In this document: positions 1 through 64,000 of the stretch, piece after piece | Layout: each line of letters starts with the position of its first letter | Numbering within the stretch: position 1 is the stretch's first letter | Origin: Mobula birostris | Lineage: Eukaryota | Assembly: GCF_030028105.1 (NCBI RefSeq) | Contig: NW_027277693.1 | Location: forward strand, 186,001-250,000 | DNA length: 64,000 nt | Reading direction: 5' to 3' | Notes under the pieces: generated by a model | Told to the model about the DNA's origin: nothing | Databases searched by the model: none | What the model saw: the letters and a program-made list of their open reading frames with translations, nothing else | Translations under genes and position numbers: made by a program

Positions 1-154
1 TGTCCCTTCTGGATCCAGAGCCGAGAGGAAGGTGTTGATGGTGGATGATTTCCCAGCCCCCACCAGGCCGACGAGCAGGATGTTTATACAGGAGTTTCCA
101 CAGCCCTCAGGGGGTTTGTAGTTACACAAATTGTTCCTCAGAGTCTCCAGATTC
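1..154 (-). CDS. IFI44L: Exon: start of IFI44-family P-loop domain (NLETLRNNLCNYKPPEGCGNSCINILLVGLVGAGKSSTINTFLSALDPEGT)
   Basis: Acceptor tggcag|G at 155/154. Walker A GxxGAGKSS is preceded by ILLVG and a YxP motif, as in IFI44/IFI44L. Confidence 0.8.
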
Positions 155-18100: not shown

Positions 18101-21100
18101 GCAGGAATTCACATTAAAAGGGTTGCTGGGCATGGGTGCGAGAGCACAAGTCCGGGTATTTTTAGCGTTTTTAAGGGGTACAGGGTTTTTTTTGTAGGAT
18201 ATGACGAATAAACAGGAATAGGATACTAGGATGGTCAAAGATGGGAGNNNNNNNNNNNNNNNNNNNNNNNNNNNNNNNNNNNNNNNNNNNNNNNNNNNNN
18301 NNNNNNNNNNNNNNNNNNNNNNNNNNNNNNNNNNNNNNNNNNNNNNNNNNNNNNNNNNNNNNNNNNNNNNNNNNNNNNNNNNNNNNNNNNNNTTTAGAAT
18401 GTATGTCTAGTGCACATTCCGGAGCAGAGGGTGGCGGTAATGCACCATTAGGCTGGATGCCAACCGCCGTAAAACAAGATACAGACAGACAGAATTGAAC
18501 ACATATGGCTGCCACTGTAAAGTTTACACTAATCACTACAGAACTTCTTGGGATTTTTCTTAGCTTTATCTTCTAGATCGATCTCACACCCCCTCTTTTT
18601 GCCTCCTGATTTCCCTCTTGATAGTATTCTTAGTTATTTGATGTTAAGGGATTCACTGGAAAATAACCTAAATGCACCTTGTCTTTCCATATTTTTCTTG
18701 ACCAAAGCCTGAATATCTCTTGTCTTGACAGGTTTACCCTCCACTTCAGCAGGAACATACTGCCTCTGCAGGCTCGATATTTCTCAACTCCTGCCCTAAT
18801 CGCTCAGGGCGAGCGCCAAGCCTGTATTCTCACCGTTACACTTCTCCGAATTCCTGCTTCTCTTCCTTTGGCTCCATCCTGAAGAAATCGAACAATCCAA
18901 TTGTTCATTCACCACTGAAGGCTCATCACCCGGCAGACTGTCGTCCTGCACTACTGGAATGCCTACACGTCAGTCAGGAGCCTTTAAGCTCAGAATTGTT
19001 GCTAAATTGACCTCCGTACCCAAAGACATTTTGGACTGCGAACCTCCCTCCCTCACCCAGCAGTCACTGCCTGACCGACTATAGTTCGTTCCATCATTTT
19101 CCTACCCAAGACACACATCAATCACATCCCTCACATTCCATGTGAGAAGGTTTCAGTGAAGCGTGAGGTGTGACAGGGAGAGACGGGTTTTACCCACCGG
19201 GGGAGGAATGTTCTCTGGATCTGGTTCTGTCACTGAGACTCTGTCTGATGGCCCGAATGGTATTTGGACAATGGCACTGAACTTTCCTCCTAATGAGAAT
19301 ACCGCTGGTTTCTCTCCAAAGTACTCGATGAACTGCTGTTCCTTCATGGAATAACCCTGGATGAGTACTTATCTGCTCCTCTCTCACATCTCGGGATTTC
19401 TGCAACAGAATCACGGCACAGATGTCTTCCTTCAGCACTCTTCCGCCTCCTGTAACACAGAGTAACAGTGTGTCTGGGTGTTGTGGGATGGGTGTGTGTC
19501 CCACCCACTGGGTATATCAGTTTTGAGCTCAGTACCTTCCACCTGGGGCTGTGCCCACCTTCCTGCCCCCTGTGTGTGTCCAGTTGATGCTGACTATGTA
19601 CAAGACAGCCCTCCCATCCCACTACTGGCACTCACCTCCCCACACAAGCTACAGCACTGACAGTAGCATCATTTTTCCACTGGGACTTTCATCCCAGGAA
19701 TGCCCTCCCCACTCAGGGGCACAGAAAGTTCCAAACACCTTACACACAGGGGAAGGGAACCGACCCGTGTCCCGGACATTGTTACACCAGGATCCACAGT
19801 CCGTTACCTCACAGCTGTTTGTGGGAGCTTGCTCTGCACCATTATACATCCCCATCACAATGATAACTACTGTGAGCTTTGGTGGCAGGGCACCACAAGA
19901 CATGACAAGGATAAGGAAGGTGCTACATCAATGCAGTGCCACTGTCCTATTGTAAACCAAATCCCAGGATGTCACATAGTCAGAATTATTGTACCTCAGA
20001 GAAAGGGAAGAGCCAGTAGTCAGCAGAAGTCTCCAAGAGGAAGGGGATACCACGGAAGTAAATTGACTTCATGACTTCACCTGTGGAGAGGACGAGAGTA
20101 TCTACCTGTGACCCACTGCAGGGCATTTTGAAAATCCTCAGTTTCATGAGACACATTGTAGACAAACAGGACACTGGGAATCCTTGGCCTTTCACACTTG
20201 TTGATATTCAGCTGCTTCACAATCTCCTCATGGACGGATCCTCGACCGTAACATTGCACTGTAAAACACAGAACCTGTGCTCACTCAGTCTGCCTCACAC
20301 CAGCACATTTCACTCAAGGTGATTCCCAGTAACAGAAGGGAAGGGGATAGATTTAATGTTCCTCCGAGCTCAGAGTTGGACACGCATCAGCATGGGAATG
20401 GGCTCTGTTTCACTGTAAATGTGTCAGCAAATGGGAGTTCTCAAGGGATGTGAAAGCAGCAGGTTAAGTGGGGTAGTTTACAGAGGTGGGGAGGAGTGTT
20501 GGAGACAGTGGAGACCGCAGAGGTGACAAGGGGTGTAGGTTCCAGAGTGGATCAGAGAGATGGGGAGGGGTCACAGATACTGGAGTGTTGTAGGCATTGC
20601 TGAGGGTCACAGAGAATGGAAGTGCTACAGGGTCCATTTGGGCTCAGAGAGTGGGATGTGTGTAGGGAACGGAGGGGAAGGGGAAACAGACACACCGACA
20701 GGGTGAGGTATTGATCTGGGTGAGACAGTCAGCACTCTGACTCTCACAACACACAGAATACCATCCCTGGAAGCATCAGGTCCACAGATACAGAGCAACA
20801 TCCAATCTACAGGGACCTGTCACCGGGAGACTGCAGGATGTGCCCTGTGGAGGTCCTTCAGCCCATCGAGACATTGGACAATACAGCAGCATACAGGTCC
20901 TTTGGCCCAACCACTCCTCACTGGCCATGGTGCCCGTCCAGATTGTCTGCATTACAACTGTATCTCTCCATGTCCCACCCCCTCCATGTACCTATCCCAG
21001 TGCTTCTGAACGGATACTCTTGTACCTGCCTTAACCACTTCCCCTGTGAAAAAGATCAAAGCCCAAAGTACAGTTATTATCAAAGTACATATATATCACC

Positions 21101-24100
21101 ATATACACCCCTGAGATTCATTTCCTTGCTGGCATACTCAATAAATCCATATTAGAATAATAACCATAATAGTTTCACATACTCTCCACTGTCTGGGTGA
21201 GAAAGTTATCCCTTAGGCCCCTTTTAACTCTCTTCCCCTCACCCTTAACCCAGGGGCTCTAATTGTGGATTCTCTGACCTGGGGAAAAAACTGTTACCAT
21301 GAACCTTATCTTGCCTCGATGATTTTATTTACTTCTCTATTCTGTATTCCACAACATACTTCTTCATTATAAATAGCACCCTTTAATTTTGCATCATCCA
21401 CAGATTTACTGATAAAGCCTTGTGCACTGGCATTCGAATCATTTCTCAAAATAGTAATGAAAGAAACCCAACACTGATCCCTGCAGAACACAGCTCATCA
21501 GCAGCCTCCATTCCGAAACACAACCTTCAACCACCTCCCTCTGCTTTCGTCCTCCAAACCAATTGTGAATCCACCAATCTTGACTGGATTCCTAACCATC
21601 CAGTTTACCCTACCTTGCAAGACCTTGTCAAGGATCTCGCTGATCTACAAATAGACAACGTCCACTGCCCTGCCCACATCTGCCTTTTCAGTCATCTCTT
21701 CAAATAGATTGAATACTGTTCAATAAGCAGAGCTTTTTATGCACAAAGCCGTGCTGACTCTATTTAATCTGACTCCGTCCACTCAAATGCTGGTACACCC
21801 TGTCCCTCAGAACTCCCGTAGGTAACTTCCCCACTACTGATTTCACACTGACTGGTGTGTCATTCCCTGGCATGAACTTCCTGCTCTTCTCAAACAACCA
21901 AACATGAGCTTCCTTCCAGTCTTCTGCAACTTTTCTGGTGGCAAATGATGAGACAATAATCTCAGCAACAGACTCCACAATTTCTCCTCTCACCACCCAC
22001 AAATTTGAAGGAAGCACTCACTCTGGCCCTGGGGTTTCATCCACCAATATACCGTAAGGTTGCAAATATCAACCTTTCTGGAAATCTGACCAGTCTCCAA
22101 AACATCTCTACCTAATTCCCATGAGTAATCATGATTATCTCCTCAGTGAAAAAGGGGAAATATTCGTTAAGAATCTCACCCATGTTATGCAGGTCAAGAC
22201 ATATGTACCCTGCTAATGTCTGAAGGGATCTACTCACTTGGTAACCACCCTTTTAGTCATGATATAGCTGCAAAATCTCTTGGGATTTCCCTTCATCTTT
22301 TCTGTCAGATCCATCTCACACCCTCTCTCTTTGCCCTCATGATTTCACACTTGATTGTTTTCTTGGTCATTTGGTATTAAAGCATTACCTGGCGCATGAC
22401 ATAATTGAACTATGTCCTTCCATTTTCTCCTTGACAAAAGCTTGTATATCTCTCATACTTTTGTATCCACTAAACTGTCTGTCCAGGATTTCATACAATG
22501 CTTCCTACTGGACCAGCCTACCATGCGAGGTCTTATTGTAGGTTCTACTAAATGGACAGCGTTCTCAGCCTGAACCTCACCTACAATTTTGGTCATTCTA
22601 CAAACAGCTCTAAAGACGTTCAACTGCACAATTTTCCAGTCACACCATGCAAACTCCTCCTAATCAGTCTCTGTTTATCCAAATACTGGGACATCCAATC
22701 CCTCCGATTGCCCACCACTAACTTCCCCACAATTAATGTCGGGTTCACTGATCTGTCAATCCATGGCTTATCCCTTCTATCATTCTTAAACTACAGAATA
22801 ACATTGACCTCATTCCATTCTTCAGTGGCATTGTTTCCCAGTTACAAACAAGGAAGTAAGTATCTCTGAAAGGGCCTCCGCTGTTTCCTCTTTAGCCTCC
22901 CACGGAGTCCCAGGAAGCACTTAGTAAGGCCCTGGTGATTTATCAACTAGAATTCACTGTAAGGCTGCAAATACCTTCTCCCTGGAAATATGCATGACCC
23001 CAATCCGTCTTAACATGCTTCCCTCATCCTTTGAGCAATTGTGATTTTCAGTAAAACAGTTCAGCAATCACTGAGGAGAAATATTTCGTATAATTTCAAC
23101 CTATCTGCCCCATCAAGTTATAGAGAGCCTGCTGATCCCCAAGAGGAACTCCTCTCTAACCATCCTTTTAATATTTACTGAGCTATAGAACCTCCTAGAA
23201 TTTTCTTTAATCTCGTCTGTCAGATCCATCTCATACCCTCACTTTGCCCTCCAGATTTACCTCAAGTGCATTTTTTATATTTTTATAATCATCAAGAGAT
23301 GAACTTGTCCCCAAATTAAACACACTGCATTATGTACAAAATGATGGAGGAACTCAGCAGGCCGGGCAGCATCAATGGAAAAGAGTACAGCCGATGCTTC
23401 AGACTGAGACCCTTCTTCGGGACTCCTGTTTGTGAACACAATGTATGTTTGCCTCTCCCCTTGACTGGAACTTCAATCTCTCTCATCAGCCTGGGTTCCC
23501 AAACCATCCAGGCTCTGTACACAAGAGGAACATAATACATGTACACCGTTGATATGCCATGAATCGTGCCCCAATCCTTGCTTCTTACCGTTACACTGAA
23601 GCTGCTCTGCGTTCTTTTCGCTCTTCTAGTGCGTGTCGGTTGAAGATGTCAAGTTATCTGTTTGCTCACTGCTCAATGAGGAAGTCTCAGTGCCCTTTGG
23701 ATCCTTGCTCGACTCTAGTGCACACCACACATATCAATCAGCAACATGCAACCTGTGATTTGGTGTTGATGTTAACTTAGAACCCATGGGGATTTTCTCT
23801 TCTGACCCTCCCTCCTCCCACGCCCCAATCCCGGTGTGTCACTGACTGACTGTGAAACAGATCTGACAGTTTCCCATCAAACCCACCACAGACACACCTG
23901 CCCTAGGGCATGTAATGGGAGACTGAAGGATGTACAGAATGAGGCTATTCAGCCCATCGTTTAATACACCAAGAACGAGGTGATTTGCCCAGTGAGTCTG
24001 TGATGACCAATATGCTCAGCTGAATAAACCCGAATTCCTACAGTCAACTTTATCCGCTCTAATCCTGTCTTGTCATGCATCCACCCAGGTGCCTCTTCAA

Positions 24101-27100
24101 TGATACCATTGTACCTGCTGCACCCACTTTCTCGGGCAGCTCTGTCCATATACTCACCACCCTATGGGTGAAAGAATTGCCCCTCAGGTCCGATTTAAGA
24201 CCTTTCCGATTCACCCTAAGCATATGTCCCAAGCTTTGGACTCTCATGACATGTGGGAAAGACTGTTGGCATCCACCTTATCCTTGCCACACCATGATTT
24301 TAAATGTTGCTGTATTATCATCACCTCCTACATGACAGGAAATAATGACCTACTGTGGATAATCCCACACTATTGCTCAGTACAGGCAACAGTCCTGTAT
24401 TTCTCTGCCCAATATCCAGATTCATCACATCTTTCCTATAAAAGGGTGACCAAAATTCTGCACCACGTTTTATTTGCAGCCTCACCAATAACATTTTCAA
24501 CAGCAACATAACCTACTACTTCCACACTCAACAATTGAATGCCAGCGTGCTAAATGCTATTTTCTCCCAACATGTTCCTGCAGCTCAGGACATAAGCAGA
24601 ACTTCTGAGCTTCTAAAGTGAGCTATTTCTTCCCAGGTATCATTTTAATTCTAAAATAGTGACAGATCAGATTCAAGATATGGTTTTTCTGTTACATCTA
24701 CATTCAAACATTCAATGAAATGCTCGTTTTTCTGGATGAACAACACAGTACAAGGATGAGGTAGGGGCGGCCATAAGTGTCACCCTGCTTCCAGTGTCAA
24801 CATAGCATGCCCACAACTTACTAACAAAAAGGCTTTGGCACCGTAGCAGGAATCTAGAATACCCAAGGGAAAGCCACGGCAATCACAGAGAGAAAGTACA
24901 CACTCTGTCAGGACAACAGAAGGAATTGAAATGCCATGAGTCGTGCCCCAACTTCGCTTCTCACCGTTACACTGAAGCTGCTCTGCGTTCTTTTCGCTCT
25001 TCTCGTGCGTGTCGGTTGAAGATGTCAAGTTATCTGTTTGCTCACTGCTTAATGAGGAAGTCTCAGTGCCCTTTGGATCCTTGCTCGACCCTAGTGCACA
25101 CCACACATATCAATCAGCAACATGCAACCTGTGATTTGGTGTTGATGTTAACTTAGAACTGATGGGGATTTTCTGTTCTGACACTCCCTCCGCTCACGCC
25201 CCAATCCCTGTATGTCACTGACTGACTGTGAAACAGATCTGACAGTTTCCCATCAAACCCACCACAGACACACCTGCCCTCGGGCATGTAATGGGAGACT
25301 GAAGGATGTACAGAATGAGGCTATTCAGCCCATCGTTTAATACACCAAGAACGAGGTGATTTGCCCAGTGAGTCTGTGATGACCAATATGCCCAGCTGGA
25401 TAAACCCAATTTCCTGCAGTCAACTTTATCCGCTCTAACCCTGTCTTTTCATTCATCCACCCAGGTGCCCCTTCAATGATACCATTGTACCTGCTGCACC
25501 CACTGTCTCGGGCAGCTCGGTCTATATACGCACCACACTATGGGTGAAAGAATTGCCCCTCAGGTCCTATTTAGACCTTTCCGATTCACCCTAAGCATAT
25601 GTCCCAAGCTTTGGACTCTCATGACGTGTGGGAAAGACTGTTGGAATCCACCTTATCCTTGCCACACCATGATTTTAAATGTTCCTATATTATCATCACC
25701 TCCTACATGACAGGAAATAATGACCTACTGTGCATAATCCCACACTATTACTCAGTACAGGCAACAGTCTTGCAATTCTCTGCCCAATATCCAGATTCAT
25801 CACATCTTTCCTATAAAAGGGTGACCAAAATTCTGCACCACGTTTCATTTGCAGCCTCACCAATAACATTTTCAACAGCAACATAACCTACTAGTTCCAC
25901 ACTCAACAATTGAATGTCAGCGTGCTAAATGTTATTTTCTCCCAACATGTTCCTGCAGCTCAGGACATAAGCAGAACTTCTGAGCTTCTAAAGTGAGCTA
26001 TTTCTTCCCAGGTATCATTTTAATTCTAAAATAGTGACAGATCAGATTCAAGATTTGGTTTTTCTGTTACATCTACATTCAAACATTCAATGAAATGCTC
26101 GTTTTTCTGGATGAACAACACAGGACAAGGATGAGGTAGGGGCAGCCGTAAGTGTCACCCTGCTTCCAGTGTCAACATGGCATGCCCACAACTTACTAAC
26201 AAAAAGGCTTTGGCACCGTAGCAGGAATCTAGAATACCCAAGGGAAAGCCACGGCAATCACAGAGAGAAAGTACACACTCTTTCAGGACAACAGAAGGAA
26301 TTGAAATGCCATGAGTCGTGCCCCAACTTCGCTTCTCACCGTTACACTGAAGCTGCTCTGCGTTCTTTTCGCTCTTCTCGTGCGTGTCGGTTGAAGATGT
26401 CAAGTTATCTGTTTGCTCACTGCTCAATGAGGAAGTCTCAGTGCCCTTTGGATCCTTGCTCGACCCTAGTGCACACCACACATATCAATCAGCAACATGC
26501 AACCTGTGATTTGGTGTTGATGTTAACTTAGAACCGATGGGGATTTTCTGTTCTGACCCTCCCTCCTCCCACGCCCCAATCCCGGTGTGTCACTGACTGA
26601 CTGTGAAACAGATCTGACAGTTTCCCATCAAACCCACCACAGACACACCTGCCCTAGGGCATGTAATGGGAGACTGAAGGATGTACAGAATGAGGCTATT
26701 CAGCCCATCGTTTAATACACCAAGAACGAGGTGATTTGCCCAGTGAGTCTGTGATGACCAATATGCTCAGCTGAATAAACCCGAATTCCTACAGTCAACT
26801 TTATCCGCTCTAATCCTGTCTTGTCATGCATCCACCCAGGTGCCTCTTCAATGATACCATTGTACCTGCTGCACCCACTTTCTCGGGCAGCTCTGTCCAT
26901 ATACTCACCACCCTATGGGTGAAAGAATTGCCCCTCAGGTCCGATTTAAGACCTTTCCGATTCACCCTAAGCATATGTCCCAAGCTTTGGACTCTCATGA
27001 CATGTGGGAAAGACTGTTGGCATCCACCTTATCCTTGCCACACCATGATTTTAAATGTTGCTGTATTATCATCACCTCCTACATGACAGGAAATAATGAC

Positions 27101-30100
27101 CTACTGTGGATAATCCCACACTATTGCTCAGTACAGGCAACAGTCCTGTATTTCTCTGCCCAATATCCAGATTCATCACATCTTTCCTATAAAAGGGTGA
27201 CCAAAATTCTGCACCACGTTTTATTTGCAGCCTCACCAATAACATCTTCAACAGCAACATAACGTACTACTTCCACACTCAACAATTGAATATCAGCGTG
27301 CTAAATGCTATTTTCTCCCAACATGTTCCTGCAGCTCAGGACATAAGCAGAACTTCTGAGCTTCTAAAGTGAGCTATTTCTTCCCAGGTATCATTTTAAT
27401 TCTAAAATAGTGACAGATCAGATTCAAGATATGGTTTTTCTGTTACATCTACATTCAAACATTCAATGAAATGCTCGTTTTTCTGGATGAACAACACAGT
27501 ACAAGGATGAGGTAGGGGCGGCCATAAGTGTCACCCTGCTTCCAGTGTCAACATAGTATGCCCACAACTTACTAACAAAAAGGCTTTGGCACCGTAGGAG
27601 GAATCTAGAATACCCAAGGGAAAGCCACAGCAATCACAGAGAGAAAGTACACACTCTGTCAGGACAACAGAAGGAATTGAAATGCCATGAGTCGTGCCCC
27701 AACTTCGCTTCTCACCGTTACACTGAAGCTGCTCTGCGTTCTTTTCGCTCTTCTCGTGCGTGTCGGTTGAAGATGTCAAGTTATCTGTTTGCTCACTGCT
27801 TAATGAGGAAGTCTCAGTGCCCTTTGGATCCTTGCTCGACCCTAGTGCACACCACACATATCAATCAGCAACATGCAACCTGTGATTTGGTGTTGATGTT
27901 AACTTAGAACTGATGGGGATTTTCTGTTCTGACACTCCCTCCGCTCACGCCCCAATCCCTGTATGTCACTGACTGACTGTGAAACAGATCTGACAGTTTC
28001 CCATCAAACCCACCACAGACACACCTGCCCTCGGGCATGTAATGGGAGACTGAAGGATGTACAGAATGAGGCTATTCAGCCCATCGTTTAATACACCAAG
28101 AACGAGGTGATTTGCCCAGTGAGTCTGTGATGACCAATATGCCCAGCTGGATAAACCCAATTTCCTGCAGTCAACTTTATCCGCTCTAACCCTGTCTTTT
28201 CATTCATCCACCCAGGTGCCCCTTCAATGATACCATTGTACCTGCTGCACCCACTGTCTCGGGCAGCTCTGTCCATATACGCACCACCCTATGGGTGAAA
28301 GAATTGCCCCTCAGGTCCTATTTAGACCTTTCCGATTCACCCTAAGCATATGTCCCAAGCTTTGGACTCTCATGACGTGTGGGAAAGACTGTTGGAATCC
28401 ACCTTATCCTTGCCACACCATGATTTTAAATGTTCCTATATTATCATCACCTCCTACATGACAGGAAATAATGACCTACTGTGCATAATCCCACACTATT
28501 ACTCAGTACAGGCAACAGTCTTGCAATTCTCTGCCCAATATCCAGATTCATCACATCTTTCCTATAAAAGGGTGACCAAAATTCTGCACCACGTTTCATT
28601 TGCAGCCTCACCAATAACATTTTCAACAGCAACATAACCTACTAGTTCCACACTCAACAATTGAATGTCAGCGTGCTAAATGTTATTTTCTCCCAACATG
28701 TTCCTGCAGCTCAGGACATAAGCAGAACTTCTGAGCTTCTAAAGTGAGCTATTTCTTCCCAGGTATCATTTTAATTCTAAAATAGTGACAGATCAGATTC
28801 AAGATTTGGTTTTTCTGTTACATCTACATTCAAACATTCAATGAAATGCTCGTTTTTCTGGATGAACAACACAGGACAAGGATGAGGTAGGGGCAGCCGT
28901 AAGTGTCACCCTGCTTCCAGTGTCAACATGGCATGCCCACAACTTACTAACAAAAAGGCTTTGGCACCGTAGCAGGAATCTAGAATACCCAAGGGAAAGC
29001 CACGGCAATCACAGAGAGAAAGTACTCACTCTTTCAGGACAACAGAAGGAATTGAAATGCCATGAGTCGTGCCCCAACTTCGCTTCTCACCGTTACACTG
29101 AAGCTGCTCTGCGTTCTTTTCGCTCTTCTCGTGCGTGTCGGTTGAAGATGTCAAGTTATCTGTTTGCTCACTGCTTAATGAGGAAGTCTCAGTGCCCTTT
29201 GGATCCTTGCTCGACCCTAGTGCACACCACACATATCAATCAGCAACATGCAACCTGTGATTTGGTGTTGATGTTAACTTAGAACTGATGGGGATTTTCT
29301 GTTCTGACACTCCCTCCGCTCACGCCCCAATCCCTGTATGTCACTGACTGACTGTGAAACAGATCTGACAGTTTCCCATCAAACCCACCACAGACACATC
29401 TGCCCTCGGGCATGTAATGGGAGACTGAAGGATGTACAGAATGAGGCTATTCAGCCCATCGTTTAATACACCAAGAACGAGGTGATTTGCCCAGTGAGTC
29501 TGTGATGACCAATATGCCCAGCTGGATAAACCCAATTTCCTGCAGTCAACTTTATCCGCTCTAACCCTGTCTTTTCATTCATCCACCCAGGTGCCCCTTC
29601 AATGATACCATTGTACCTGCTGCACCCACTGTCTCGGGCAGCTCTGTCCATATACGCACCACCCTATGGGTGAAAGAATTGCCCCTCAGGTCCTATTTAG
29701 ACCTTTCCGATTCACCCTAAGCATATGTCCCAAGCTTTGGACTCTCATGACGTGTGGGAAAGACTGTTGGAATCCACCTTATCCTTGCCACACCATGATT
29801 TTAAATGTTCCTATATTATCATCACCTCCTACATGACAGGAAATAATGACCTACTGTGCATAATCCCACACTATTACTCAGTACAGGCAACAGTCTTGCA
29901 ATTCTCTGCCCAACATCCAGATTCATCACATCTTTCCTATAAAAGGGTGACCAAAATTCTGCACCACGTTTCATTTGCAGCCTCACCAATAACATTTTCA
30001 ACAGCAACATAACCTACTAGTTCCACACTCAACAATTGAATGTCAGCGTGCTAAATGTTATTTTCTCCCAACATGTTCCTGCAGCTCAGGACATAACCAG

Positions 30101-33100
30101 AACTTCTGAGCTTCTAAAGTGAGCTATTTCTTCCCAGGTATCATTTTAATTCTAAAATAGTGACAGATCAGATTCAAGATTTGGTTTTTCTGTTACATCT
30201 GCATTCAAACATTCAATGAAATGCTCGTTTTTCTGGATGAACAACACAGGACAAGGATGAGGTAGGGGCAGCCGTAAGAGTCACCCTGCTTCCAGTGTCA
30301 ACATGGCATGCCCACAACTTACTAACAAAAAGGCTTTGGCACCGTAGCAGGAATCTAGAATACCCAAGGGAAAGCCACGGCAATCACAGAGAGAAAGTAC
30401 ACACTCTTTCAGGACAACAGAAGGAATTGAAATGCCATGAGTCGTGCCCCAACTTCGCTTCTCACCGTTACACTGAAGCTGCTCTGCGTTCTTTTCGCTC
30501 TTCTCGTGCGTGTCGGTTGAAGATGTCAAGTTATCTGTTTGCTCACTGCTCAATGAGGAAGTCTCAGTGCCCTTTGGATCCTTGCTCGACCCTAGTGCAC
30601 ACCACACATATCAATCAGCAACATGCAACCTGTGATTTGGTGTTGATGTTAACTTAGAACCGATGGGGATTTTCTGTTCTGACCCTCCCTCCTCCCACGC
30701 CCCAATCCCTGTGTGTCACTGACTGACTGTGAAACAGATCTGACAGTTTCCCATCAAACCCACCACAGACACACCTGCCCTCGGGCATGTAATGGGAGAC
30801 TGAAGGATGTACAGAATGAGGCTATTCAGCCCATCGTTTATTACGCCAAGAACGAGGTGATTTGTCCAGTGAGTCTGTGATGACCAATATGCCCAGCTGG
30901 ATAAACCCAATTTCCTGCAGTCAACTTTATCCGCTCTAACCCTGTCTTTTCATGCATCCACCCAGGTGCCCCTTCAATGATACCATTGTACCTGCTGCAC
31001 CCACTGTCTCGGGCAGCTCTGTCCATATACGCACCACCCTATGGGTGAAAGAATTGCCCCTCAGGTCCTATTTAGACCATTCCGATTCACACTAAGCATA
31101 TGTCCCAAGCTTTGGACTCTCATGACGTGTAGGAAAGACTGTTGGCATCCACCTTATCCTTGCCACACCATGATTTTAAAAGTTCCTATATTATCATCAC
31201 CTCCTACATGACAGGAAATAATGACCTACTGTGGATAATCCCACACTATTACTCAGTACAGGCAACAGTCTTGCAATTCTCTGCCCAATATCCAGATTCA
31301 TCACATCTTTCCTATAAAAGGGTGACCAAAATTCTGCACCACGTTTCATTTGCAGCCTCACCAATAACATTTTCAACAGCAACATAACCTACTAGTTCCA
31401 CACTCAACAATTGAATGCCAGCGTGCTAAATGTTATTTTCTCCCAACATGTTCCTGCAGCTCGGGACATAAGCAGAACTTCTGAGCTTCTAAAGTGAGCT
31501 ATTTCTTCCCAGGTATCATTTTAATTCTAAAATAGTGACAGATCAGATTCAAGATTTGGTTTTTCTGTTACATCTACATTCAAACATTCAATGAAATGCT
31601 CATTTTTCTGGATGAACAACACAGTACAAGGATGAGGTAGGGGCAGCCGTAAGTGTCACCCTGCTTCCAGTGTCAACATAGCATGCCCACAACTTACTAA
31701 CAAAAAGGCTTTGGCACCGTAGCAGGAATCTAGAATACCCAATGGAAAGCCACGGCAATCACAAAGAGAAAGTACACACTCTTTCAGGACAACAGAAGGA
31801 ATTGAAATGCCATGGGTCGTGCCCCAATCTTCGCTTCTCACCGTTACACTGAAGCTGCTCTGCGTTCTTTTTGCTCTTCTCGTGCGTGTCGGTTGAAGAT
31901 GTCAAGTTATCTGTTTGCTCACTGCTCAATGAGGAAGTCTCAGTGCCCTTTGGATCCTTGCTCGACCCTAGTGCACACCACACATATCAATCAGCAACAT
32001 GCAACCTGTAATTTGGTGTTGATGTTAACTTAGAACCGATGGGGATTTTCTGTTCTGACCCTCCCTCCTCCCACGCCCCAATCCCGGTGTGTCACTGACT
32101 GACTGTGAAACAGATCTGACAGTTTCCCATCAAACCCACCACAGACACACCTGCCCTAAGGCATGTAATGGGAGACTGAAGGATGTACAGAATGAGGCTA
32201 TTCAGCCCATCGTTTAATACACCAAGAACGAGGTGATTTGCCCAGTGAGTCTGTGATGACCAATATGCCCAGCTGGATAAACCCAATTTCCTGCAGTCAA
32301 CTTTATCCGCTCTAACCCTGTCTTTTCATTCATCCACCCAGGTGCCCCTTCAATGATACCATTGTACCTGCTGCACCCACTGTCTCGGGCAGCTCTGTCC
32401 ATATACGCACCACCCTATGGGTGAAAGAATTGCCCCTCAGGTCCTATTTAGACCTTTCCGATTCACCCTAAGCATATGTCCCAAGCTTTGGACTCTCATG
32501 ACGTGTGGGAAAGACTGTTGGAATCCACCTTATCCTTGCCACACCATGATTTTAAATGTTCCTATATTATCATCACCTCCTACATGACAGGAAATAATGA
32601 CCTACTGTGCATAATCCCACACTATTACTCAGTACAGGCAACAGTCTTGCAATTCTCTGCCCAACATCCAGATTCATCACATCTTTCCTATAAAAGGGTG
32701 ACCAAAATTCTGCACCACGTTTCATTTGCAGCCTCACCAATAACATTTTCAACAGCAACATAACCTACTAGTTCCACACTCAACAATTGAATGTCAGCGT
32801 GCTAAATGTTATTTTCTCCCAACATGTTCCTGCAGCTCAGGACATAACCAGAACTTCTGAGCTTCTAAAGTGAGCTATTTCTTCCCAGGTATCATTTTAA
32901 TTCTAAAATAGTGACAGATCAGATTCAAGATTTGGTTTTTCTGTTACATCTACATTCAAACATTCAATGAAATGCTCGTTTTTCTGGATGAACAACACAG
33001 GACAAGGATGAGGTAGGGGCAGCCGTAAGTGTCACCCTGCTTCCAGTGTCAACATGGCATGCCCACAACTTACTAACAAAAAGGCTTTGGCACCGTAGCA

Positions 33101-36100
33101 GGAATCTAGAATACCCAAGGGAAAGCCACGGCAATCACAGAGAGAAAGTACACACTCTTTCAGGACAACAGAAGGAATTGAAATGCCATGAGTCGTGCCC
33201 CAACTTCGCTTCTCACCGTTACACTGAAGCTGCTCTGCGTTCTTTTCGCTCTTCTCGTGCGTGTCGGTTGAAGATGTCAAGTTATCTGTTTGCTCACTGC
33301 TCAATGAGGAAGTCTCAGTGCCCTTTGGATCCTTGCTCGACCCTAGTGCACACCACACATATCAATCAGCAACATGCAACCTGTGATTTGGTGTTGATGT
33401 TAACTTAGAACCGATGGGGATTTTCTGTTCTGACCCTCCCTCCTCCCACGCCCCAATCCCTGTGTGTCACTGACTGACTGTGAAACAGATCTGACAGTTT
33501 CCCATCAAACCCACCACAGACACACCTGCCCTCGAGCATGTAATGGGAGACTGAAGGATGTACAGAATGAGGCTATTCAGCCCATCGTTTATTACACCAA
33601 GAACGAGGTGATTTGTCCAGTGAGTCTGTGATGACCAATATGCCCAGCTGGATAAACCCAATTTCCTGCAGTCAACTTTATCCGCTCTAACCCTGTCTTT
33701 TCATGCATCCACCCAGGTGCCCCTTCAATGATACCATTGTACCTGCTGCACCCACTGTCTCGGGCAGCTCTGTCCATATACGCACCACCCTATGGGTGAA
33801 AGAATTGCCCCTCAGGTCCTATTTAGACCATTCCGATTCACACTAAGCATATGTCCCAAGCTTTGGACTCTCATGACGTGTAGGAAAGACTGTTGGCATC
33901 CACCTTATCCTTGCCACACCATGATTTTAAAAGTTCCTATATTATCATCACCTCCTACATGACAGGAAATAATGACCTACTGTGGATAATCCCACACTAT
34001 TACTCAGTACAGGCAACAGTCTTGCAATTCTCTGCCCAATATCCAGATTCATCACATCTTTCCTATAAAAGGGTGACCAAAATTCTGCACCACGTTTCAT
34101 TTGCAGCCTCACCAATAACATTTTCAACAGCAACATAACCTACTAGTTCCACACTCAACAATTGAATGCCAGCGTGCTAAATGTTATTTTCTCCCAACAT
34201 GTTCCTGCAGCTCGGGACATAAGCAGAACTTCTGAGCTTCTAAAGTGAGCTATTTCTTCCCAGGTATCATTTTAATTCTAAAATAGTGACAGATCAGATT
34301 CAAGATTTGGTTTTTCTGTTACATCTACATTCAAACATTCAATGAAATGCTCGTTTTTCTGGATGAACAACACAGGACAAGGATGAGGTAGGGGCAGCCG
34401 TAAGTGTCACCCTGCTTCCAGTGTCAACATGGCATGCCCACAACTTACTAACAAAAAGGCTTTGGCACCGTAGCAGGAATCTAGAATACCCAAGGGAAAG
34501 CCACGGCAATCACAGAGAGAAAGTACACACTCTTTCAGGACAACAGAAGGAATTGAAATGCCATGAGTCGTGCCCCAACTTCGCTTCTCACCGTTACACT
34601 GAAGCTGCTCTGCGTTCTTTTCGCTCTTCTCGTGCGTGTCGGTTGAAGATGTCAAGTTATCTGTTTGCTCACTGCTCAATGAGGAAGTCTCAGTGCCCTT
34701 TGGATCCTTGCTCGACCCTACTGCACACCACACATATCAATCAGCAACATGCAACCTGTGATTTGGTGTTGATGTTAACTTAGAACCGATGGGGATTTTC
34801 TGTTCTGACCCTCCCTCCTCCCACGCCCCAATCCCTGTGTGTCACTGACTGACTGTGAAACAGATCTGACAGTTTCCCATCAAACCCACCACAGACACAC
34901 CTGCCCTCGGGCATGTAATGGGAGACTGAAGGATGTACAGAATGAGGCTATTCAGCCCATCGTTTATTACACCAAGAACGAGGTGATTTGTCCAGTGAGT
35001 CTGTGATGACCAATATGCCCAGCTGGATAAACCCAATTTCCTGCAGTCAACTTTATCCGCTCTAACCCTGTCTTTTCATGCATCCACCCAGGTGCCCCTT
35101 CAATGATACCATTGTACCTGCTGCACCCACTGTCTCGGGCAGCTCTGTCCATATACGCACCACCCTATGGGTGAAAGAATTGCCCCTCAGGTCCTATTTA
35201 GACCATTCCGATTCACACTAAGCATATGTCCCAAGCTTTGGACTCTCATGACGTGTAGGAAAGACTGTTGGCATCCACCTTATCCTTGCCACACCATGAT
35301 TTTAAAAGTTCCTATATTATCATCACCTCCTACATGACAGGAAATAATGACCTACTGTGGATAATCCCACACTATTACTCAGTACAGGCAACAGTCTTGC
35401 AATTCTCTGCCCAATATCCAGATTCATCACATCTTTCCTATAAAAGGGTGACCAAAATTCTGCACCACGTTTCATTTGCAGCCTCACCAATAACATTTTC
35501 AACAGCAACATAACCTACTAGTTCCACACTCAACAATTGAATGCCAGCGTGCTAAATGTTATTTTCTCCCAACATGTTCCTGCAGCTCGGGACATAAGCA
35601 GAACTTCTGAGCTTCTAAAGTGAGCTATTTCTTCCCAGGTATCATTTTAATTCTAAAATAGTGACAGATCAGATTCAAGATTTGGTTTTTCTGTTACATC
35701 TACATTCAAACATTCAATGAAATGCTCGTTTTTCTGGATGAACAACACAGTACAAGGATGAGGTAGGGGCAGCCGTAAGTGTCACCCTGCTTCCAGTGTC
35801 AACATAGCATGCCCACAACTTACTAACAAAAAGGCTTTGGCACCGTAGCAGGAATCTAGAATACCCAATGGAAAGCCACGGCAATCACAAAGAGAAAGTA
35901 CACACTCTTTCAGGACAACAGAAGGAATTGAAATGCCATGGGTCGTGCCCCAATCTTCGCTTCTCACCGTTACACTGAAGCTGCTCTGCGTTCTTTTTGC
36001 TCTTCTCGTGCGTGTCGGTTGAAGATGTCAAGTTATCTGTTTGCTCACTGCTCAATGAGGAAGTCTCAGTGCCCTTTGGATCCTTGCTCGACCCTAGTGC

Positions 36101-39100
36101 ACACCACACATATCAATCAGCAACATGCAACCTGTGATTTGGTGTTGATGTTAACTTAGAACCGATGGGGATTTTCTGTTCTGACCCTCCCTCCTCCCAC
36201 GCCCCAATCCCGGTGTGTCACTGACTGACTGTGAAACAGATCTGACAGTTTCCCATCAAACCCACCACAGACACACCTGCCCTAAGGCATGTAATGGGAG
36301 ACTGAAGGATGTACAGAATGAGGCTATTCAGCCCATCGTTTAATACACCAAGAACGAGGTGATTTGCCCAGTGAGTCTGTGATGACCAATATGCCCAGCT
36401 GGATAAACCCAATTTTCTGCAGTCAACTTTATCCGCTCTAACCCTGTCTTTTCATGCATCCACCCAGGTGCCCCTTCAAAGATACCATTGTACCTGCTGC
36501 ACCCACTTTCTCGGGCAGCTCTGTCTATATACGCACCAACGTACAGGTGAAAGAATTGCCCCTCAGGTCCTATTTAGACCTTTCCGATTCACCCTAAGCA
36601 GATGTCCCAAACTTTGGACTCTCATGACGTGTGGGAAAGACTGTTGGCACCCACCTTATCCTTGCCACACCATGATTTTAAATGTTCCTATATTATCATC
36701 ACCTCCTACATGACAGGAAATAATGACCTACTGTGCATAATCCCACACTATTACTCAGTACAGGCAACAGTCTTGCAATTCTCTGCCCAATATCCAGATT
36801 CATCACATCTTTCCTATAAAAGGGTGACCAAAATTCTGCACCACGTTTCATTTGCAGCCTCACCAATAACATTTTCAACAGCAACATAACCTACTAGTTC
36901 CACACTCAACAATTGAATGCCAGCGTGCTAAATGTTATTTTCTCCCAACATGTTCCTGCAGCTCAGGACATAAGCAGAACTTCTGAGCTTCTAAAGTGAG
37001 CTATTTCTTCCCAGGTATCATTTTAATTCTAAAATAGTGACAGATCAGATTCAAGATTTGGTTTTTCTGTTACATCTACATTCAAACATTCAATGAAATG
37101 CTCGTTTATCTGGATCAACAACACAGTACAAGGATGAGGTAGGGGCAGCCGTAGTGTCACCCTGCTTCCAGTGTCAACATGGCATGCCCACAACTTACTA
37201 ACAAAAAGGCTTTGGCACCATAGCAGGAATCTAGAATACCCAAGGGAAAGCCACGGCAATCACAGAGAGAAAGTACACACTCTTTCAGGACAACAGAAGG
37301 AATTGAAATGCCATGAGTCGTGCCCCAACTTCGCTTCTCACCGTTACATTGAAGCTGCTCTGCGTTCTTTTCGCTCTTCTAGTGCGTGTCGGTTGAAGAT
37401 GTCAAGTTATCTGTTTGCTCACTGCTCAATGAGGAAGTCTCAGTGCCCTTTGGATCCTTGCTCGACCCTAGTGCACACCACACATATCAATCAGCAACAT
37501 GCAACCTGTGATTTGGTGTTGATGTTAACTTAGAACCGATGGGGATTTTCTGTTCTGACCCTCCCTCCTCCCACGCCCCAATCCCTGTGTGTCACTGACT
37601 GACTGTGAAACGGATCTGACAGTTTCCCATCAAACCCACCACAGACACACCTGCCCTCGGGCATGTAATGGGAGACTGAAGGATGTACAGAATGAGGCTA
37701 TTCAGCCCATCGTTTATTACACCAAGAACGAGGTGATTTGCCCAGTGAGTCTGTGATGACCAATATGCCCAGCTGGATAAACCCAATTTCCTGCAGTCAA
37801 CTTTATCCGCTCTAACCCTGTCTTTTCATGCATCCACCCAGGTGCCCCTTCAATGATACCATTGTACCTGCTGCACCCACTGTCTCGGGCAGCTCTGTCT
37901 ATATACGCACCACCCTATGGGTGAAAGAATTGCCCCTCAGGTCCTATTTAGACCATTCTGATTCACACTAAGCATATGTCCCAAGCTTTGGACTCTCATG
38001 ACGTGTAGGAAATACTGTTGGCATCCACCTTATCCTTGCCACACCATGATTTTAAATGTTCCTATATTATCATCACCTCCTACATGACAGGAAATAATGA
38101 CCTACTGTGGATAATCCCACACTATTACTCAGTACAGGCAACAGTCTTGCAATTCTCTGCCCAATATCCAGATTCATCACATCTTTCCTATAAAAGGGTG
38201 ACCAAAATTCTGCACCACGTTTCATTTGCAGCCTCACCAATAACATTTTCAACAGCAACATAACCTACTAGTTCCACACTCAACAATTGAATGCCAGCGT
38301 GCTAAATGTTATTTTCTCCCAACATGTTCCTGCAGCTCAGGACATAAGCAGAACTTCTGAGCTTCTAAAGTGAGCTATTTCTTCCCAGGTATCATTTTAA
38401 TTCTAAAATAGTGACAGATCAGATTCAAGATTTGGTTTTTCTGTTACATCTACATTCAAACATTCAATGAAATGCTCGTTTTTCTGGATGAACAACACAG
38501 TACAAGGATGAGGTAGGGGCGGCCATAAGTGTCACCCTGTTTCCAGTGTCAACATAGCATGCCCACAACTTACTAACAAAAAGGCTTTGGCACCGTAGCA
38601 GGAATCTAGAATACCCAATGGAAAGCCACGGCAATCACAGAGAGAAAGTACACACTCTTTCAGGACAACAGAAGGAATTGAAATGTCATGAGTCGTGCCC
38701 CAATCTTCGCTTCTCACCGTTACACTGAAGCTGCTCTGCGTTCTTTTCGATCTTCTCGTGCGTGTCGGTTGAAGACGTCAAGTTATCTGTTTGCTCACTG
38801 CTCAATGAGGAAGTCTCAGTGCCCTTTGGATCCTTGCTCGACCCTAGTGCACACCACACATATCAATCAGCAACATGCAACCTGTAATTTGGTGTTGATG
38901 TTAACTTAGAACCTATGGGGATTTTCTCTTCTGACCCTCCCTCCTCCCACACCCCAATCCCGGTGTGTCACTGACTGACTGTGAAACAGATCTGACAGTT
39001 TCCCATCAAACGCACCACAGACACATCTGCCCTAGGGCATGTAATGGGAGACTGAAGGATGTACAGAATGAGGCTATTCAGCCCATCGTTTAATACGCCA

Positions 39101-42100
39101 AGAAGGAGGTGATTTGCCCAGTGAGTCTGTGATGACCAATATGCCCAGCTGGATATACCCAATTTCCTGCAGTCAACTTTATCCGCTCTAACCCTGTCTT
39201 TTCATGCATCCACCCAGGTGCCCCTTCAATGATAGCATTGTACCTGCTGCACCCACTGTCTCGGGCAGCTCTGTCTATATACGCACCACCCTATGGGTGA
39301 AAGAATTGCCCCTCAGGTCCTATTTAGACCATTCCGATTCACCCTAAGCAGATGTCCCAAGCTTTGGACTCTCATGACATGTGGGAAAGACTGTTGGCAT
39401 CCAGCTTATACTTGCCACACCATGATTCTTTATATTTCTATATCATCACCACCTGCTGTGTTACAACGAATAATGACCTAGAATGGAAAACCCCTCCCTA
39501 TTATTCAACACTGGCAACAGTCTTGCAATTCTCTGCCCAATTTCCAGTTTAACCAAATCTTTCCTCTTAAAGGGTGACCAAAACTCTGCACCATGTTCGA
39601 ATGGCAGCCTCACCAATAACATTTTCAACGGCAACATAATGCTCTAGTTCCGTATTCAATGCCCAACTAATGAATGTCAACGGGCTGAATGGTACTTTTT
39701 CCCAACATGATCCTGCAGCTCAGGACAGAAGCAGACCATCTGAGCTTCTAAAGTGAGCTATTTCTCCTCAGGTATTATTTTAATCTTAAAATAGTGACAG
39801 ATCAGATTAAAGATCTGTTTGTGTGTTAGTTCTACATTGAATCATTGAAACATTCAGTGAAATGCTCGTTTGCCTCAATGAACAACACAGTACAAGGATG
39901 AGCTGGGGGGTGCGCCCGTAGCTGTCACTGTGATCCCATTACCAACGTAACATGCGATCAACTTACTTACACTAACCCTTTGCGAAATGGCAGGAAACTG
40001 AATACTTCATGGAAACCTACTGCAGTCATGGGGAGAAAGTACAAACTCCTTAAAGACAGTGGTGGGAGTTGAACACACATGGCTGCTACTGTAAAGTTTA
40101 TGCTAATCACTACAGAATTTCTTGGGATTTTCCTTAACCTTATCTTCTAGACCCATCTCACACCCTCTCTCTTTGCCCTCCTGATTTCCCTCTTGATAGT
40201 ATTCTTAGTCATTCAATGTTAAGGGATTCACTGGGAAATAACCTAATTGCACCTTGTCCTTCCATATTTTTCTTGACCAAAGCCTGAATATCTCTCGTCT
40301 TGACAGGTTTACCCTCCACTTCGACAGGAACATACTGCCTCTGCAGACTTGATATTTCTCAACTCCTGCCCTAATCGCTCAGGGCGAGCCCCAAGCCTGC
40401 ATTCTCACCGTTACACTTCTCCGAATTCCTGCCTCTCTTCCTTTGGCTCCATCCTGAAGGAATCGAACAATCCAATAGTTCATTCACCACCGAAGTCTCA
40501 TCGTCCGGCGCATTGTCACCGCGCCCTACTGGAAAACATACACATCATTCAGAAGCCTGAAGATTTATCTCCCTTATGTCACTGTAAGGCTGCCAATACC
40601 ACCTCCCTGGTCATAAGACTGTCCACCAAAACATTTCCACGTTTCCCGTATTTCTTGAGCATGCTCAGTAAACACTGAGGAAAAATACATTTTAAAACCA
40701 CACCCATCTCCAGCTGCAGAAGACATCGGCAGCCTTGCTGATATCTAAGGGAACCTACTCTCTTGCCAGCCACTCTTTTACTCTTGATTAAACGTCTTGG
40801 GATTTTCTTAACCTCACCTGCCAGATTCATCTTTTACTCTCTCTTTTCTCTGATGATCTTCCTTTTGAGAGTATTCTGAGCCTTTCTAATTCAAGGGATT
40901 CACAAATCCTAGACCAAAACATTCCTTCAGTTAGTCCTGACGAAGGGTCTCGGCCTGAAACGTCGACTGCACCTCTTCCTAGAGATGCTGCCTGGCCTGC
41001 TGCGTTCACCAGCAACTTTGATGTGTGTTACCAAAATACTCTGTGTGTTTCATTCTTTTTCCTGATCAGAACTTGACAATCTCTCATCATCCAGAATTCC
41101 CCACACTTGCCAGGTTTACCGTTCACCTCAAAGGAACATATTGCCCCTTAACTCTCAATCTCTCTGCAGTCATGCCCCAAGCCTGCCCTCTCACCGTTAC
41201 AGTTAAGCTTTTCTGAGCTACTGCCATTCGTCTCTGGGCTCCAGATTGAAGAACTACGAGAAGCCGATCGTTCATTTGACACTGATAGGGTCTTACCACC
41301 CTGCAGATCTTCACTCCACCCTATTGCACAACACAAACAGCATATTGTTACCTGGGAATTGGTACTGAATTGACCTCAGGACCCATGGGGGATTCCTTCT
41401 CTGACCCACCCACCCTCCTTCCTGCTGTATCTTCTGACTGACTGGGGTACAGACCCATCACTCTCCCCCCACTACCACCCCAGACACACATCTGACACGT
41501 CCCTTATGTTTGTAGTGGGAAGTTTACAGTGTAAAATGAGGTGTAGCAATAGAGAGTCAGGTTTTACCCACCGGAGCAGGAACCTCCTCTGGGTCGGGTC
41601 CTGTCGATGAGACTCTGTTTGACAGTCTGAATCACTGTGGGGCACTGGTACGTCTTTGATCTACTCCACCAGCTACTGGAATCCATCCAGAATACACGAA
41701 AAACTTTAGTTCCCTCATGGAATAACCCTGAATTTTTTGTTATCTTCTCCTCTCTGACAGCTGTGGATTTCTGCAATAGAATCACGGCACAGATGTCTTC
41801 CTTCTGCACCAAACCTCCTCCTGAAACACAGAGTAACAGAGTGAGCTGGGTGATGCCGTGGGAGGGCTGTGTGTCCCTCAGGGTACATCAGCACCTTCCA
41901 CCCAGGGCTGTGCCCTCCCTCCTGCCCCCTGTATGCCCGGGTGGTGTTGTGGTGATGCTGTCTGTGTACAAGGCAGTCCTCACACCCCCACTACAGGCAC
42001 TCACGTCCCACAGGAGGTACAGCACAGGGATTTTCAGCCCAACCACCAGCTCCCCTATCAGGTGCACAGAAAGATCCACATACACCATTTCACACAGAGC

Positions 42101-49944: not shown

Positions 49945-51345
49945 AATGGAATCTGTTCTCAGATTCCTCAATGTTACGGAAGCATTGAGGCAGATAATCT
50001 TGTGCTGAAAAGCCTAGTCTCATCAGGTGGAATTGGTATCATCCCTAGCTGCAACGGTTGAACAGCTCACTGCAGCCAATCGGACACGGGTTTCTGCGAT
50101 TTCCACTCTCTCGGCTGCCATCCACCAGCTCACTGTGGACAGCCAGCATCAGCTGACAGCCATTAACGCTCTTGCCAATGTAATTCAGCATCTTTTGGCC
50201 GCCTCAGTCCCACTCCCAGCATCTCACAGGTCCTCCTTTTCTGCTGCCTGGACAATCTCTGCTATTAATGATCCTGCTCCTGTGCCCGGACCAGAACTGA
50301 CTCTCATCTTCGGACTCTCACAGTCTCCTATGTTGGTACAGGAACCGAGAATTCCACCACCAGACAGATATTCTGGTGATCCTGACAGCTGCGCGGAATT
50401 TTATTAGCCAATGCGCGACGAAATTCCAAGCCCAACCTGGTCATTTTGATTATGATGCACGAAAGCTGGCGTACATGGTCAATCTTCCAGATGGACATCC
50501 ACTCTGCCTGCTAAGTGCTTTACGGGAGCAAAGCTGCCTCACAGCCCAGTCATTCCGACATCTCATGGCGGTGTTAAGGAGGGTTTTTGGTCTTCCAATA
50601 CAGGGTTAGGAGGCCACCTCCGACTGTTGGACCTGCGCCAAGGCAGAGGAATGGCAGGAGCCTATGTAGGCAAATTCCACACACTTGCAGCAGAGATAGG
50701 TGGGAATGAGAGAATTCTCATCACTGCCTTCCAGTGTGGACTGAACGCAGGGGTCTGGCACAAGATCGCTGTCCAGAATGAGCAGGATAGTCTGGATGAC
50801 CTGTTAATCTGGTTTTTCGAGTGTACAACCGGGTAAGTGGGTGGCACAGGGAAAGAATGTTTCAAGCTTCTTACACAGCATCTGATCACCGTCATTCCTC
50901 GCCCTCTCTCTCTCCTTCACCACCCAGCACCCAGTCTACGGAGGAGCCTATGCAAGTAGGGATACACCTGTCTCAGGAGGAACGAGAGTGGCACAGGAGA
51001 ACAGGTTCCTGCCTCTACTGTGGCGATCCAGGACACTTCCGGGTGGCATGTCCCCAGCACACATTAAAAGAGAATTCCCATCAGCAGGGAGAGGAATCGT
51101 GATGGGTTGGTGCTGTCTTCAGTCAGCTTCCCCAAACTGTGTAATGCTCACAGCTTCCTTGTCATGGAGGTCTCAAACACATGAACTTAAAGTATTTATC
51201 GACTCCGGTGCAGTCGGGAATCTCATGGACATCTCTCTAGCTCAAAGATGGGGAGTTCCGACTTGGGAATTAAGAGAAAAGATCACCGTCAAGCGTTGGA
51301 CGGTTGACCTCTGGGCACCGGCCAAATCCACCATTGCTTTGTCTT
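49945..51345 (+). mobile_element. Degraded Ty3/Gypsy (sushi-like) gag-protease
   Basis: [42 protein letters not shown] zinc knuckle, FIDSGA protease; frameshifted. Confidence 0.85.
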
Positions 51346-51873
51346 GTGGTCTAATCTGAAAGAATACGTCATGTGAGTGTTCTGTCATATCTTCTGCCTT
51401 CACTCACATTTCCTCAACTGACATATCTTTGTGTATTTAATATTTCAGTTATACTCAATTTGATATATTTAAGGAATTGCGTCTATATATATTGGTTGAT
51501 TAAACATTCTTGTTTGTTTAAATAATCTATAATGTGTTATATGTACAGATACATGAATTACATACGTCAACATGCTACCACGTGATACGTGCGCACCTCA
51601 CTTAAAGTAAACTTGACGTTGGACCCATCTTTTTGGACTCCCATGTCTTCCTTTGAATTGGTTTAATATTTTAAAATTACCAACAAAAACAATCTTGTCC
51701 TCACATTGTTTGACTGGAATATCCAGAGGGACCTACTCTCTATCAACATTAAACTGCTTAAACAAACAGTTACACAAACACGAGGAATTCTGCAGATGCT
51801 GGAAATTCAAGCAACACACATCAAAGTTGCTGGTGAACGCAGCAGGCCAGGCAGCATCTCTAGGAAGAGGTAC

Positions 51874-63764: not shown

Positions 63765-64000
63765 GACGTGAGGAGACTCAGCACAATGTCCACAGACTCA
63801 CAGGGAAGGTGAAGGAAAGGGAATTGAATGGAGGTCAATAACATGCCCTGGTGGAACAATGCGACCGAATTTCCCCGGTGGAAAGTACCAACATGTTTCC
63901 TGTTCGTGGGTGATTGTACTGTAAACAGGAAGGGCTCTTTTTGTGAGTTAATGTGTACGCCCTGGGTGGAGTCGCTGAATCCGGACGACAGCAAAGGTGG

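Follow-up and report, generated by a model that had tools for sequence, protein, structure and literature searches.

The array and the gene that holds it

A 64,000-nt stretch of Mobula birostris DNA (the window; one assembly and one assembled haplotype) carries on its minus strand a recently amplified, exon-bearing macrosatellite within a modular gene of cartilaginous fish, the exons of which are all of phase 1-1. Self-BLAST resolved 12 tandem units of 1374 to 1376 bp at 23555..39400, with a tandem repeat span of 23549 to ~40058, and each unit is made up of ~1,250 nt of intron and one 126-nt exon. A decayed 3' fragment of a long interspersed nuclear element (LINE) reverse transcriptase was detected in the intronic part of 12/12 units. 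The array boundary at ~39400 proposed in a first-pass annotation of this DNA was correct: the intron preceding copy 1 is at least 97% identical to the internal intron over its acceptor-proximal ~700 nt, whereas the donor-proximal half, beyond ~39400, is 62 to 88% identical, a pattern which suggests that an old spacer-to-spacer junction was amplified recently. Tandem Repeats Finder, with a period limit of 500, did not detect the array, and Rfam gave no match.

The gene reads from right to left in window coordinates. Its order on the minus strand is first exon, A3, B3, C3, D3, the 12 array exons, A2, B2, D2, an assembly gap (N), C2, a spacer copy split by a LINE, A1, B1 and C1, then E and G, and every exon from A3 to C1 is a multiple of three and of phase 1-1. 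The coding end of the first exon (45969..45987; six codons plus one base, with a phase-1 donor) forms the N terminus of the NCBI protein P0010. It is followed by A3 (43166..43318, 153 nt) and B3 (41572..41820, 249 nt), the first and second halves of a domain termed AB; both are in P0010, B3 as a 100% match. Two spacer exons come next, C3 (41195..41320), a diverged 126-nt exon absent from P0010 (isoform X2), and D3 (40409..40525), a 117-nt exon that P0010 includes. Downstream of the array are A2 (20106..20258), which opens the second AB domain and is the second exon of the NCBI protein P0011, B2 (19198..19449; in P0011), the 117-nt spacer D2 (18834..18950; absent from P0011) and C2 (15463..15588), a single-copy spacer and the closest paralogue of the array exon (68% amino acid identity). 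Beyond these lie a dead, LINE-split spacer-exon copy (6255..12364; halves 12364-12325 and 6340-6255), the third AB domain (A1, 2870..3022; B1, 1962..2213; both in P0011), spacer exon C1 (1197..1322; absent from P0011, its donor lost by GT>AT) and the start of an IFI44-like P-loop GTPase (1..388; ATG exon 388-379, E 282-237, G 154-1), in which exon E runs from phase 1 to 2 and the P-loop of exon G is intact. As the first-pass annotation had stated, the diverged relatives C3, C2, D3 and D2 retain the boundaries and frame of the array exon; C3 and C2 align without gaps over 126 nt, while 11 gap openings are required in the 200 nt upstream. The end of the first coding exon (45969) has the same Cys-Asn and phase-1 donor as all C and D exons, and the spacers and the first exon may, from this resemblance, share an origin.

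Array exon copy 1 (38718..38843) and copy 2 (37342..37467) precede copies 3 to 11, which are all open, measure 126 nt each and occupy 24965..36093 (lowest coordinates 35968, 34592, 33217, 31842, 30466, 29091, 27716, 26340 and 24965); the edge copy, copy 12, lies at 23589..23714. The description of 12 AG/GT-bounded exons of 126 nt and phase 1-1, whose peptide ends in QCN, was borne out in full, as was the richness in S, T, E and K (24/41 whole codons), and the product is a low-complexity spacer of 42 codons. The acceptor quoted earlier has no exact plus-strand match and is present on the reverse complement, where it is exact in 11/12 copies; the exception is copy 4, with a tandem CAGTAG acceptor (34717) of the kind also seen in D3 (40525) and D2 (18950). 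The donor is gtgaga in 11/12 copies and gtaaga in copy 12. The acceptor is indeed weak, with pyrimidines at 7-8/17 positions in array exons versus 10-13/17 in the A, B, E and G exons. A branch-point-like CTGAT sits at -27, the 40 nt preceding the acceptor are identical in every copy save copy 4, and the splice signals of copies 3 to 11 are the same as those of copies 1 and 2. AlphaFold predicts the C and D spacer regions with low confidence (predicted local distance difference test, pLDDT, mostly <50), the outcome expected from the disorder check that had been proposed, and Pfam gave no match for the spacer, which on the models is probably unstructured.

The frame is kept in 12/12 units and open in 10/12. 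Copies 2 and 12 share a single GAG>TAG change, absent from the first-pass annotation, which places an in-frame TAG at exon nt 87-89 of copy 2 (37381-37379) and at 23628-23626 in copy 12, 37 nt upstream of the exon's own donor. The splice sites of both stop copies are intact and as good as those of other copies. The claim that any number of copies could be skipped or kept therefore fails for 2/12 copies, which halt translation. Through the stop-creating change, 7 nt also come to match the acceptor of the exon itself (37379-37385, 23626-23632); rescue through a cryptic acceptor created by the TAG was considered and rejected, since the remaining 37 nt would be read out of frame into a stop.

The gene models used here are NCBI predictions, built where short reads map poorly, and 38 proteins were mapped with exon profiles. 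P0010 (Mobula birostris, isoform X2, 250 aa; a protein cluster of 3 members) is, letter for letter, the join of A3-B3-D3-copy 1-copy 2 to the TAG, an exact match that upholds a credible, symmetric exon; on gene-model evidence, the array exon is probably real. P0011 (443 aa) corresponds to A2-B2-C2-A1-B1-E-G over 378 residues; it joins B1 to E-G and starts downstream of the array, with the N gap between. NCBI thus splits the locus in two, with one protein ending in array copy 2 and the downstream domains forming a separate gene, and in these predicted models array exons are joined for copies 1 and 2 only, up to the stop.

Consecutive type-C spacers occur in P0003 (five) and P0010 (two) and in none of the rest of the 38 proteins. 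P0003, from Hypanus sabinus LOC132393843, belongs to the same gene family and has its five consecutive spacer exons between AB domains, confirming that runs of spacer exons occur in another ray; these spacers are of a 49-aa type, all open in the model and 56-66% identical to the array peptide, and by sequence the Hypanus run is an independent expansion on a separate branch. Among isoforms X2, X11, X12 and X13 of Hypanus LOC132393965, the differences consist of a missing B exon, a missing C exon and a single valine, the last from tandem acceptor choice in X11 and X12, so that the predicted skipping of spacer exons does occur between annotated isoforms. In P0008, by sequence the probable counterpart in M. 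hypostoma, spacers are single, no run occurs and C1 is intact. The array peptide has the longest branch (0.36) among type-C peptides other than the C3-like clade. One protein, P0021, was dropped as a spurious match in which no module matched.

Expansion, stop codons and alternative readings

Units 2 to 12 differ pairwise by 3-49 substitutions, no two being identical, and the units show 93 substitution columns versus 3 indel columns. Private sites were found in 10/11 internal units, the closest pairs stand at offsets 1, 2 and 3, and 161/1485 informative site pairs were incompatible in the four-gamete test; the units are mosaic, as under concerted evolution by crossover and conversion. Because units that differ to this extent in mosaic patterns would not arise from over-expansion during assembly, that concern of the first-pass annotation can be set aside, and the pattern fits repeated unequal exchange and conversion rather than duplicated reads. 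A concatenation of two haplotypes of six units each was likewise rejected: units six positions apart (offset 6) are separated by 21-45 substitutions, and it is at offsets 1-3 that the most similar pairs are found. We infer from the mosaic units that an older spacer-to-spacer duplication seeded the array, which would then have grown to 12 copies through unequal crossing-over and gene conversion. The expansion may have been tolerated because the exon keeps the frame and encodes a probably unstructured spacer.

Our favored reading, held with moderate confidence, is that the array mainly cuts the protein short, or splits the gene, under relaxed constraint, with long-linker forms in the minority. 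Given the stops in copies 2 and 12, ordinary splicing would give a protein that stops some 110-150 spacer residues beyond a single AB domain, as it does in the NCBI model. Nonsense-mediated decay follows a rule by which the stop lies 50-55 nt upstream of a junction; as the stop is followed by later junctions, transcripts spliced onward past it would be decay targets. The first domain would in this way lose its link to the domains that follow the array and to the IFI44-like GTPase, amounting to gene fission or partial decay. With two stop copies, a variable linker requires that both be skipped. If every copy were included with equal probability p, a fraction (1-p)^2 of transcripts would pass both stops; p=0.9 gives 1%, and p=0.5 gives 25%. 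The full 420-aa form with all ten open copies would make up at most 0.45% of transcripts under independent splicing. The earlier proposal that spacing between domain copies 3 and 2 could vary by up to ~420 aa does not agree with the annotated protein, which ends in array copy 2 and does not extend as far as domain copy 2. The edge-copy stop could be lost only through a crossover that falls within the ~70 nt of homology downstream, and for this reason should persist at any copy number. The other spacer copies in the window that are dead, C1 through donor loss and one through the LINE, also count in favor of this reading.

No significant constraint on the array peptide was detected by exon/intron diversity or by the proportions of nonsynonymous (pN) and synonymous (pS) change, in tests of low power (126 nt, small counts). 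Variable columns within the array number 5/126 in the exon versus 88/1251 in the intron (Fisher p=0.26), and nucleotide diversity (pi) is 0.012 versus 0.022. In the comparison with C2, identity is 85% for the array exon and 87% for the 200 nt upstream, by which measure the exon diverges no slower than its intron; pN is 0.15 and pS 0.12 (15 nonsynonymous and 3 synonymous changes). Between C2 and C1, pN is 0.07 and pS 0.21. In domain exons, too, pN is close to pS in some pairs, and the family may therefore evolve fast or loosely throughout.

Several points weigh against truncation as the main outcome. Variability of the array exon is about half that of the array intron, a non-significant difference that lies in the direction of constraint, and 10/12 copies are open. 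The independent five-copy run in Hypanus is fully open in its model, indicating that expansion recurs and can stay coding. Skipping may be common at so pyrimidine-poor an acceptor, and with inclusion at 50%, both stops would be bypassed in 25% of transcripts. Moreover, the NCBI models are predictions for an array in which short reads map poorly, and the orthology of the M. hypostoma protein P0008 is drawn from only 81% identity and exon order.

Some of these points would be expected of a functional accordion, in which variable inclusion and copy number produce a selected ladder of proteins with 0-420 extra spacer residues and the stop copies serve as gates or are haplotype-specific. We consider this unlikely, while recognizing what favors it: the exons are symmetric, the acceptor is weak, spacer exons differ among the annotated Hypanus isoforms X11-X13, the independent Hypanus run is open, and EBNA-LP of Epstein-Barr virus (EBV) sets a precedent for a repeat-encoded ladder alongside a stop in one unit (PMC5686732). 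Set against this are an NCBI model that halts in copy 2, stop copies that bear no evident mark for skipping (given the identity of the 40 nt before the acceptor in all but copy 4), the rarity of the all-ten-copies form (at most 0.45% under independent splicing) and the failure to detect significant constraint on the peptide; low inclusion or stop-free haplotypes could possibly accommodate it. A more elaborate version, a stop-gated accordion at an antiviral locus, is distinctly improbable. Per-copy inclusion would then set both spacer length and the ratio of short to long protein, the AB domain would be an undescribed TIR-like or pseudo-GTPase module, and spacer runs would have been selected independently in Mobula and Hypanus. 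Were this true, the long multi-domain protein may end in the IFI44-like GTPase.

There is a slim chance that the array is instead silent passenger DNA, the upstream gene ending in or just after copy 2, copies 3 to 12 remaining unspliced and the downstream module being an independent gene. The division by NCBI into P0010 and P0011 agrees with this, as does an ATG with a donor after it at 22183, in the stretch separating the array from A2, which is a candidate start for P0011 (the same combination recurs at 14055 and 4954). AATAAA, a possible intronic polyadenylation signal, is also found on the gene strand in five array units only (34968, 33593, 30842, 27225 and 24474). However, copies 3 to 11 match copies 1 and 2 in their splice signals, the ATG at 22183 falls inside a LINE fragment, and the window contains no copy of the true first exon ahead of A2.

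An assembly artefact, whether an over-expanded array or two stops that are both consensus errors, is very improbable. The window apparently comes from a small contig (300,960 bases) with an N gap (18248-18392, the sole assembly gap, within the D2-C2 intron), and the family has redundant scaffolds: the paralogues P0012 and P0013, one on a chromosome and one on a 50,942-base contig, are identical over 508 residues. Nevertheless, no units are identical, substitution columns far outnumber indel columns, private sites mark 10/11 internal units, and the same substitution arising twice is improbable as random error; the copy number of 12 may be an under-count. A Dscam-like cluster of mutually exclusive exons, one per transcript, is equally remote: tandem duplicated exons are often of this type (PMC9013439), but in the models copy 1 is joined to copy 2, and five Hypanus copies follow one another, in contrast to the one-exon-per-transcript pattern of Dscam1, and the copies encode a near-identical peptide, so that choice among them would give no diversity.

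The AB domain, the IFI44-like GTPase and other features of the window

Exons A and B together encode the AB domain (~135 aa), for which two AlphaFold models give a five-stranded alpha/beta sandwich and named matches come from sharks and rays only. Model 1 resembles the GTPase 2qtf (Z 8.5, root-mean-square deviation [rmsd] 2.9, 119 aligned) and TIR-STING 9lmq (Z 8.0, rmsd 3.6, 114 aligned), and the best match to model 2 has Z 8.0; GTPase, TIR and flavodoxin folds were not separable in fold searches of both models. Foldseek gave no AB-domain match at E<=0.001, a PDB sequence search nothing below E 0.56, and ESM Atlas no more than clusters labelled 'hypothetical protein', whose 0.87-0.88 falls short of the 0.9 threshold for a lead. 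Pfam had no match for exons B, C and D, one weak match for exon A3 (E 0.15) and nothing above cut-off for whole family members. Derivation of the AB domain as a degenerate copy of the neighboring IFI44-like GTPase was rejected (profile-profile alignment probability 0.2%). In P0020, P0024, P0035 and P0038, a hydrophobic stretch before the AB domain looks, by eye, like a membrane anchor.

Exon G, taken with its continuation, shows 54-86% identity to 33 other proteins, and 17/34 rows are named interferon-induced protein 44-like; an IFI44-type P-loop GTPase was recognized by these names for the exon G region only, the P-loop Pfam matches all being below cut-off. Human IFI44 has an N-terminal TLDc domain, and Pfam scans of P0010 and P0011 returned no TLD match. 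The GTPase starts from an ATG exon of its own (at 388), as in standalone relatives, and is therefore probably a neighboring gene, attached in some cases; 3/38 proteins examined are annotated as AB-GTPase fusions. Typical IFI44-like GTPases of cartilaginous fish differ in being ~270 aa, standalone and without the array or AB domains. The earlier description of an 'immune gene' does not carry over to the gene that holds the array, as its basis is only this neighbor with its own ATG exon. In zebrafish, 7/19 ifi44 genes are induced by interferon (10.1101/693333), and this partial induction is the sole basis for the label.

In the Hemitrygon proteins P0027 and P0028, the AB domain is fused to an IFI44-like domain whose P-loop is degenerate, unlike the intact one of exon G in the window. 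The shark IFI44-like proteins P0059, P0060, P0063 and P0067 have N-terminal S/D/E-rich repeats whose number varies by isoform and by species, and variation in spacer repeats may be habitual in this cluster. Literature searches on IFI44 in cartilaginous fish, sharks and elasmobranchs and on intragenic repeated exons and linker length yielded no paper on the AB/IFI44-like family among the matches listed. For innate immunity in sharks and rays, this family may be of greater importance than the array.

Mobile elements account for several other features of the window. The LINE inserted in the middle of the split spacer exon (~6 kb, plus strand, 6341-12324; RVT_1 match 9146-9697) has an A-rich tail and an imperfect target-site duplication, and we take it to be L1-like. 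A 444-codon frame with an RNase H domain (16863-18194) adjoins the N gap in the D2-C2 intron. A young LINE on the minus strand (58492-61542 and 61853-64000), presumably CR1-like, has an uninterrupted 1017-codon endonuclease and reverse-transcriptase frame that adjoins an interrupted copy 96.8% identical to it. At 50000-51400 there are broken frames with a CCHC zinc-knuckle-like motif, one of which was scanned with no Pfam match; we assume them to be the remnant of a long terminal repeat (LTR) retrotransposon.

Comparison with known intragenic coding repeats

The array has the structure of a coding macrosatellite: 12 head-to-tail, kilobase-scale units with 12 exons of one gene, and mosaic units of the kind left by concerted evolution. 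It is not a non-coding satellite devoid of exons, since annotated proteins from several rays include its exon. Exons are commonly duplicated in tandem (PMC9013439), and three systems invite comparison. Human NBPF genes contain intragenic tandem Olduvai units of ~1.6 kb (PMC9584774), each of which, like the units described here, holds coding exons and belongs to a recent expansion. Olduvai units are built of exon doublets with strong splicing enhancers (PMC9313022), whereas each array unit carries a single exon, the acceptor is weak and two of the copies contain a stop. Olduvai and the array showed no relationship in sequence, the spacer being without a Pfam match.

The KIV-2 repeat of LPA encodes a folded kringle, and its units (~5.6 kb) far exceed the length of the array's units (~1,375 bp). 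A nonsense variant (R21X) nevertheless lies within this intragenic coding repeat region (PMC7442989), as the stops do here; polymorphism is established in KIV-2, whereas the array is known from one assembly.

A parallel to the stop copies is found in EBV IR1, where 3-kb units each give exons and skipping produces a size ladder of EBNA-LP (PMC5686732). One unit of the B95-8 strain likewise carries a GAG>TAG stop, which lowers and shortens EBNA-LP, and variants at the edge of IR1 are stable and can seed conversion, which may be compared with the edge-copy stop of the array (PMC5686732). IR1 differs in being viral, in having two exons and a promoter per unit and in a ladder seen by Western blotting, while the array lies in a host gene, has one exon per unit and is known from sequence. 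The likeness to IR1 is one of analogy only, with no homology.

The array shows how genes whose exons are all of phase 1 gain and lose spacer exons, and how one nonsense change within a repeat can split a gene. Furthermore, single-nucleotide polymorphisms that distinguish the copies make the array a clean natural test of exon definition across near-identical exons. Our verdict is that the array is an exon-bearing macrosatellite of a known kind, that of NBPF, LPA KIV-2 and EBV IR1, tolerated by the gene in which it expanded.

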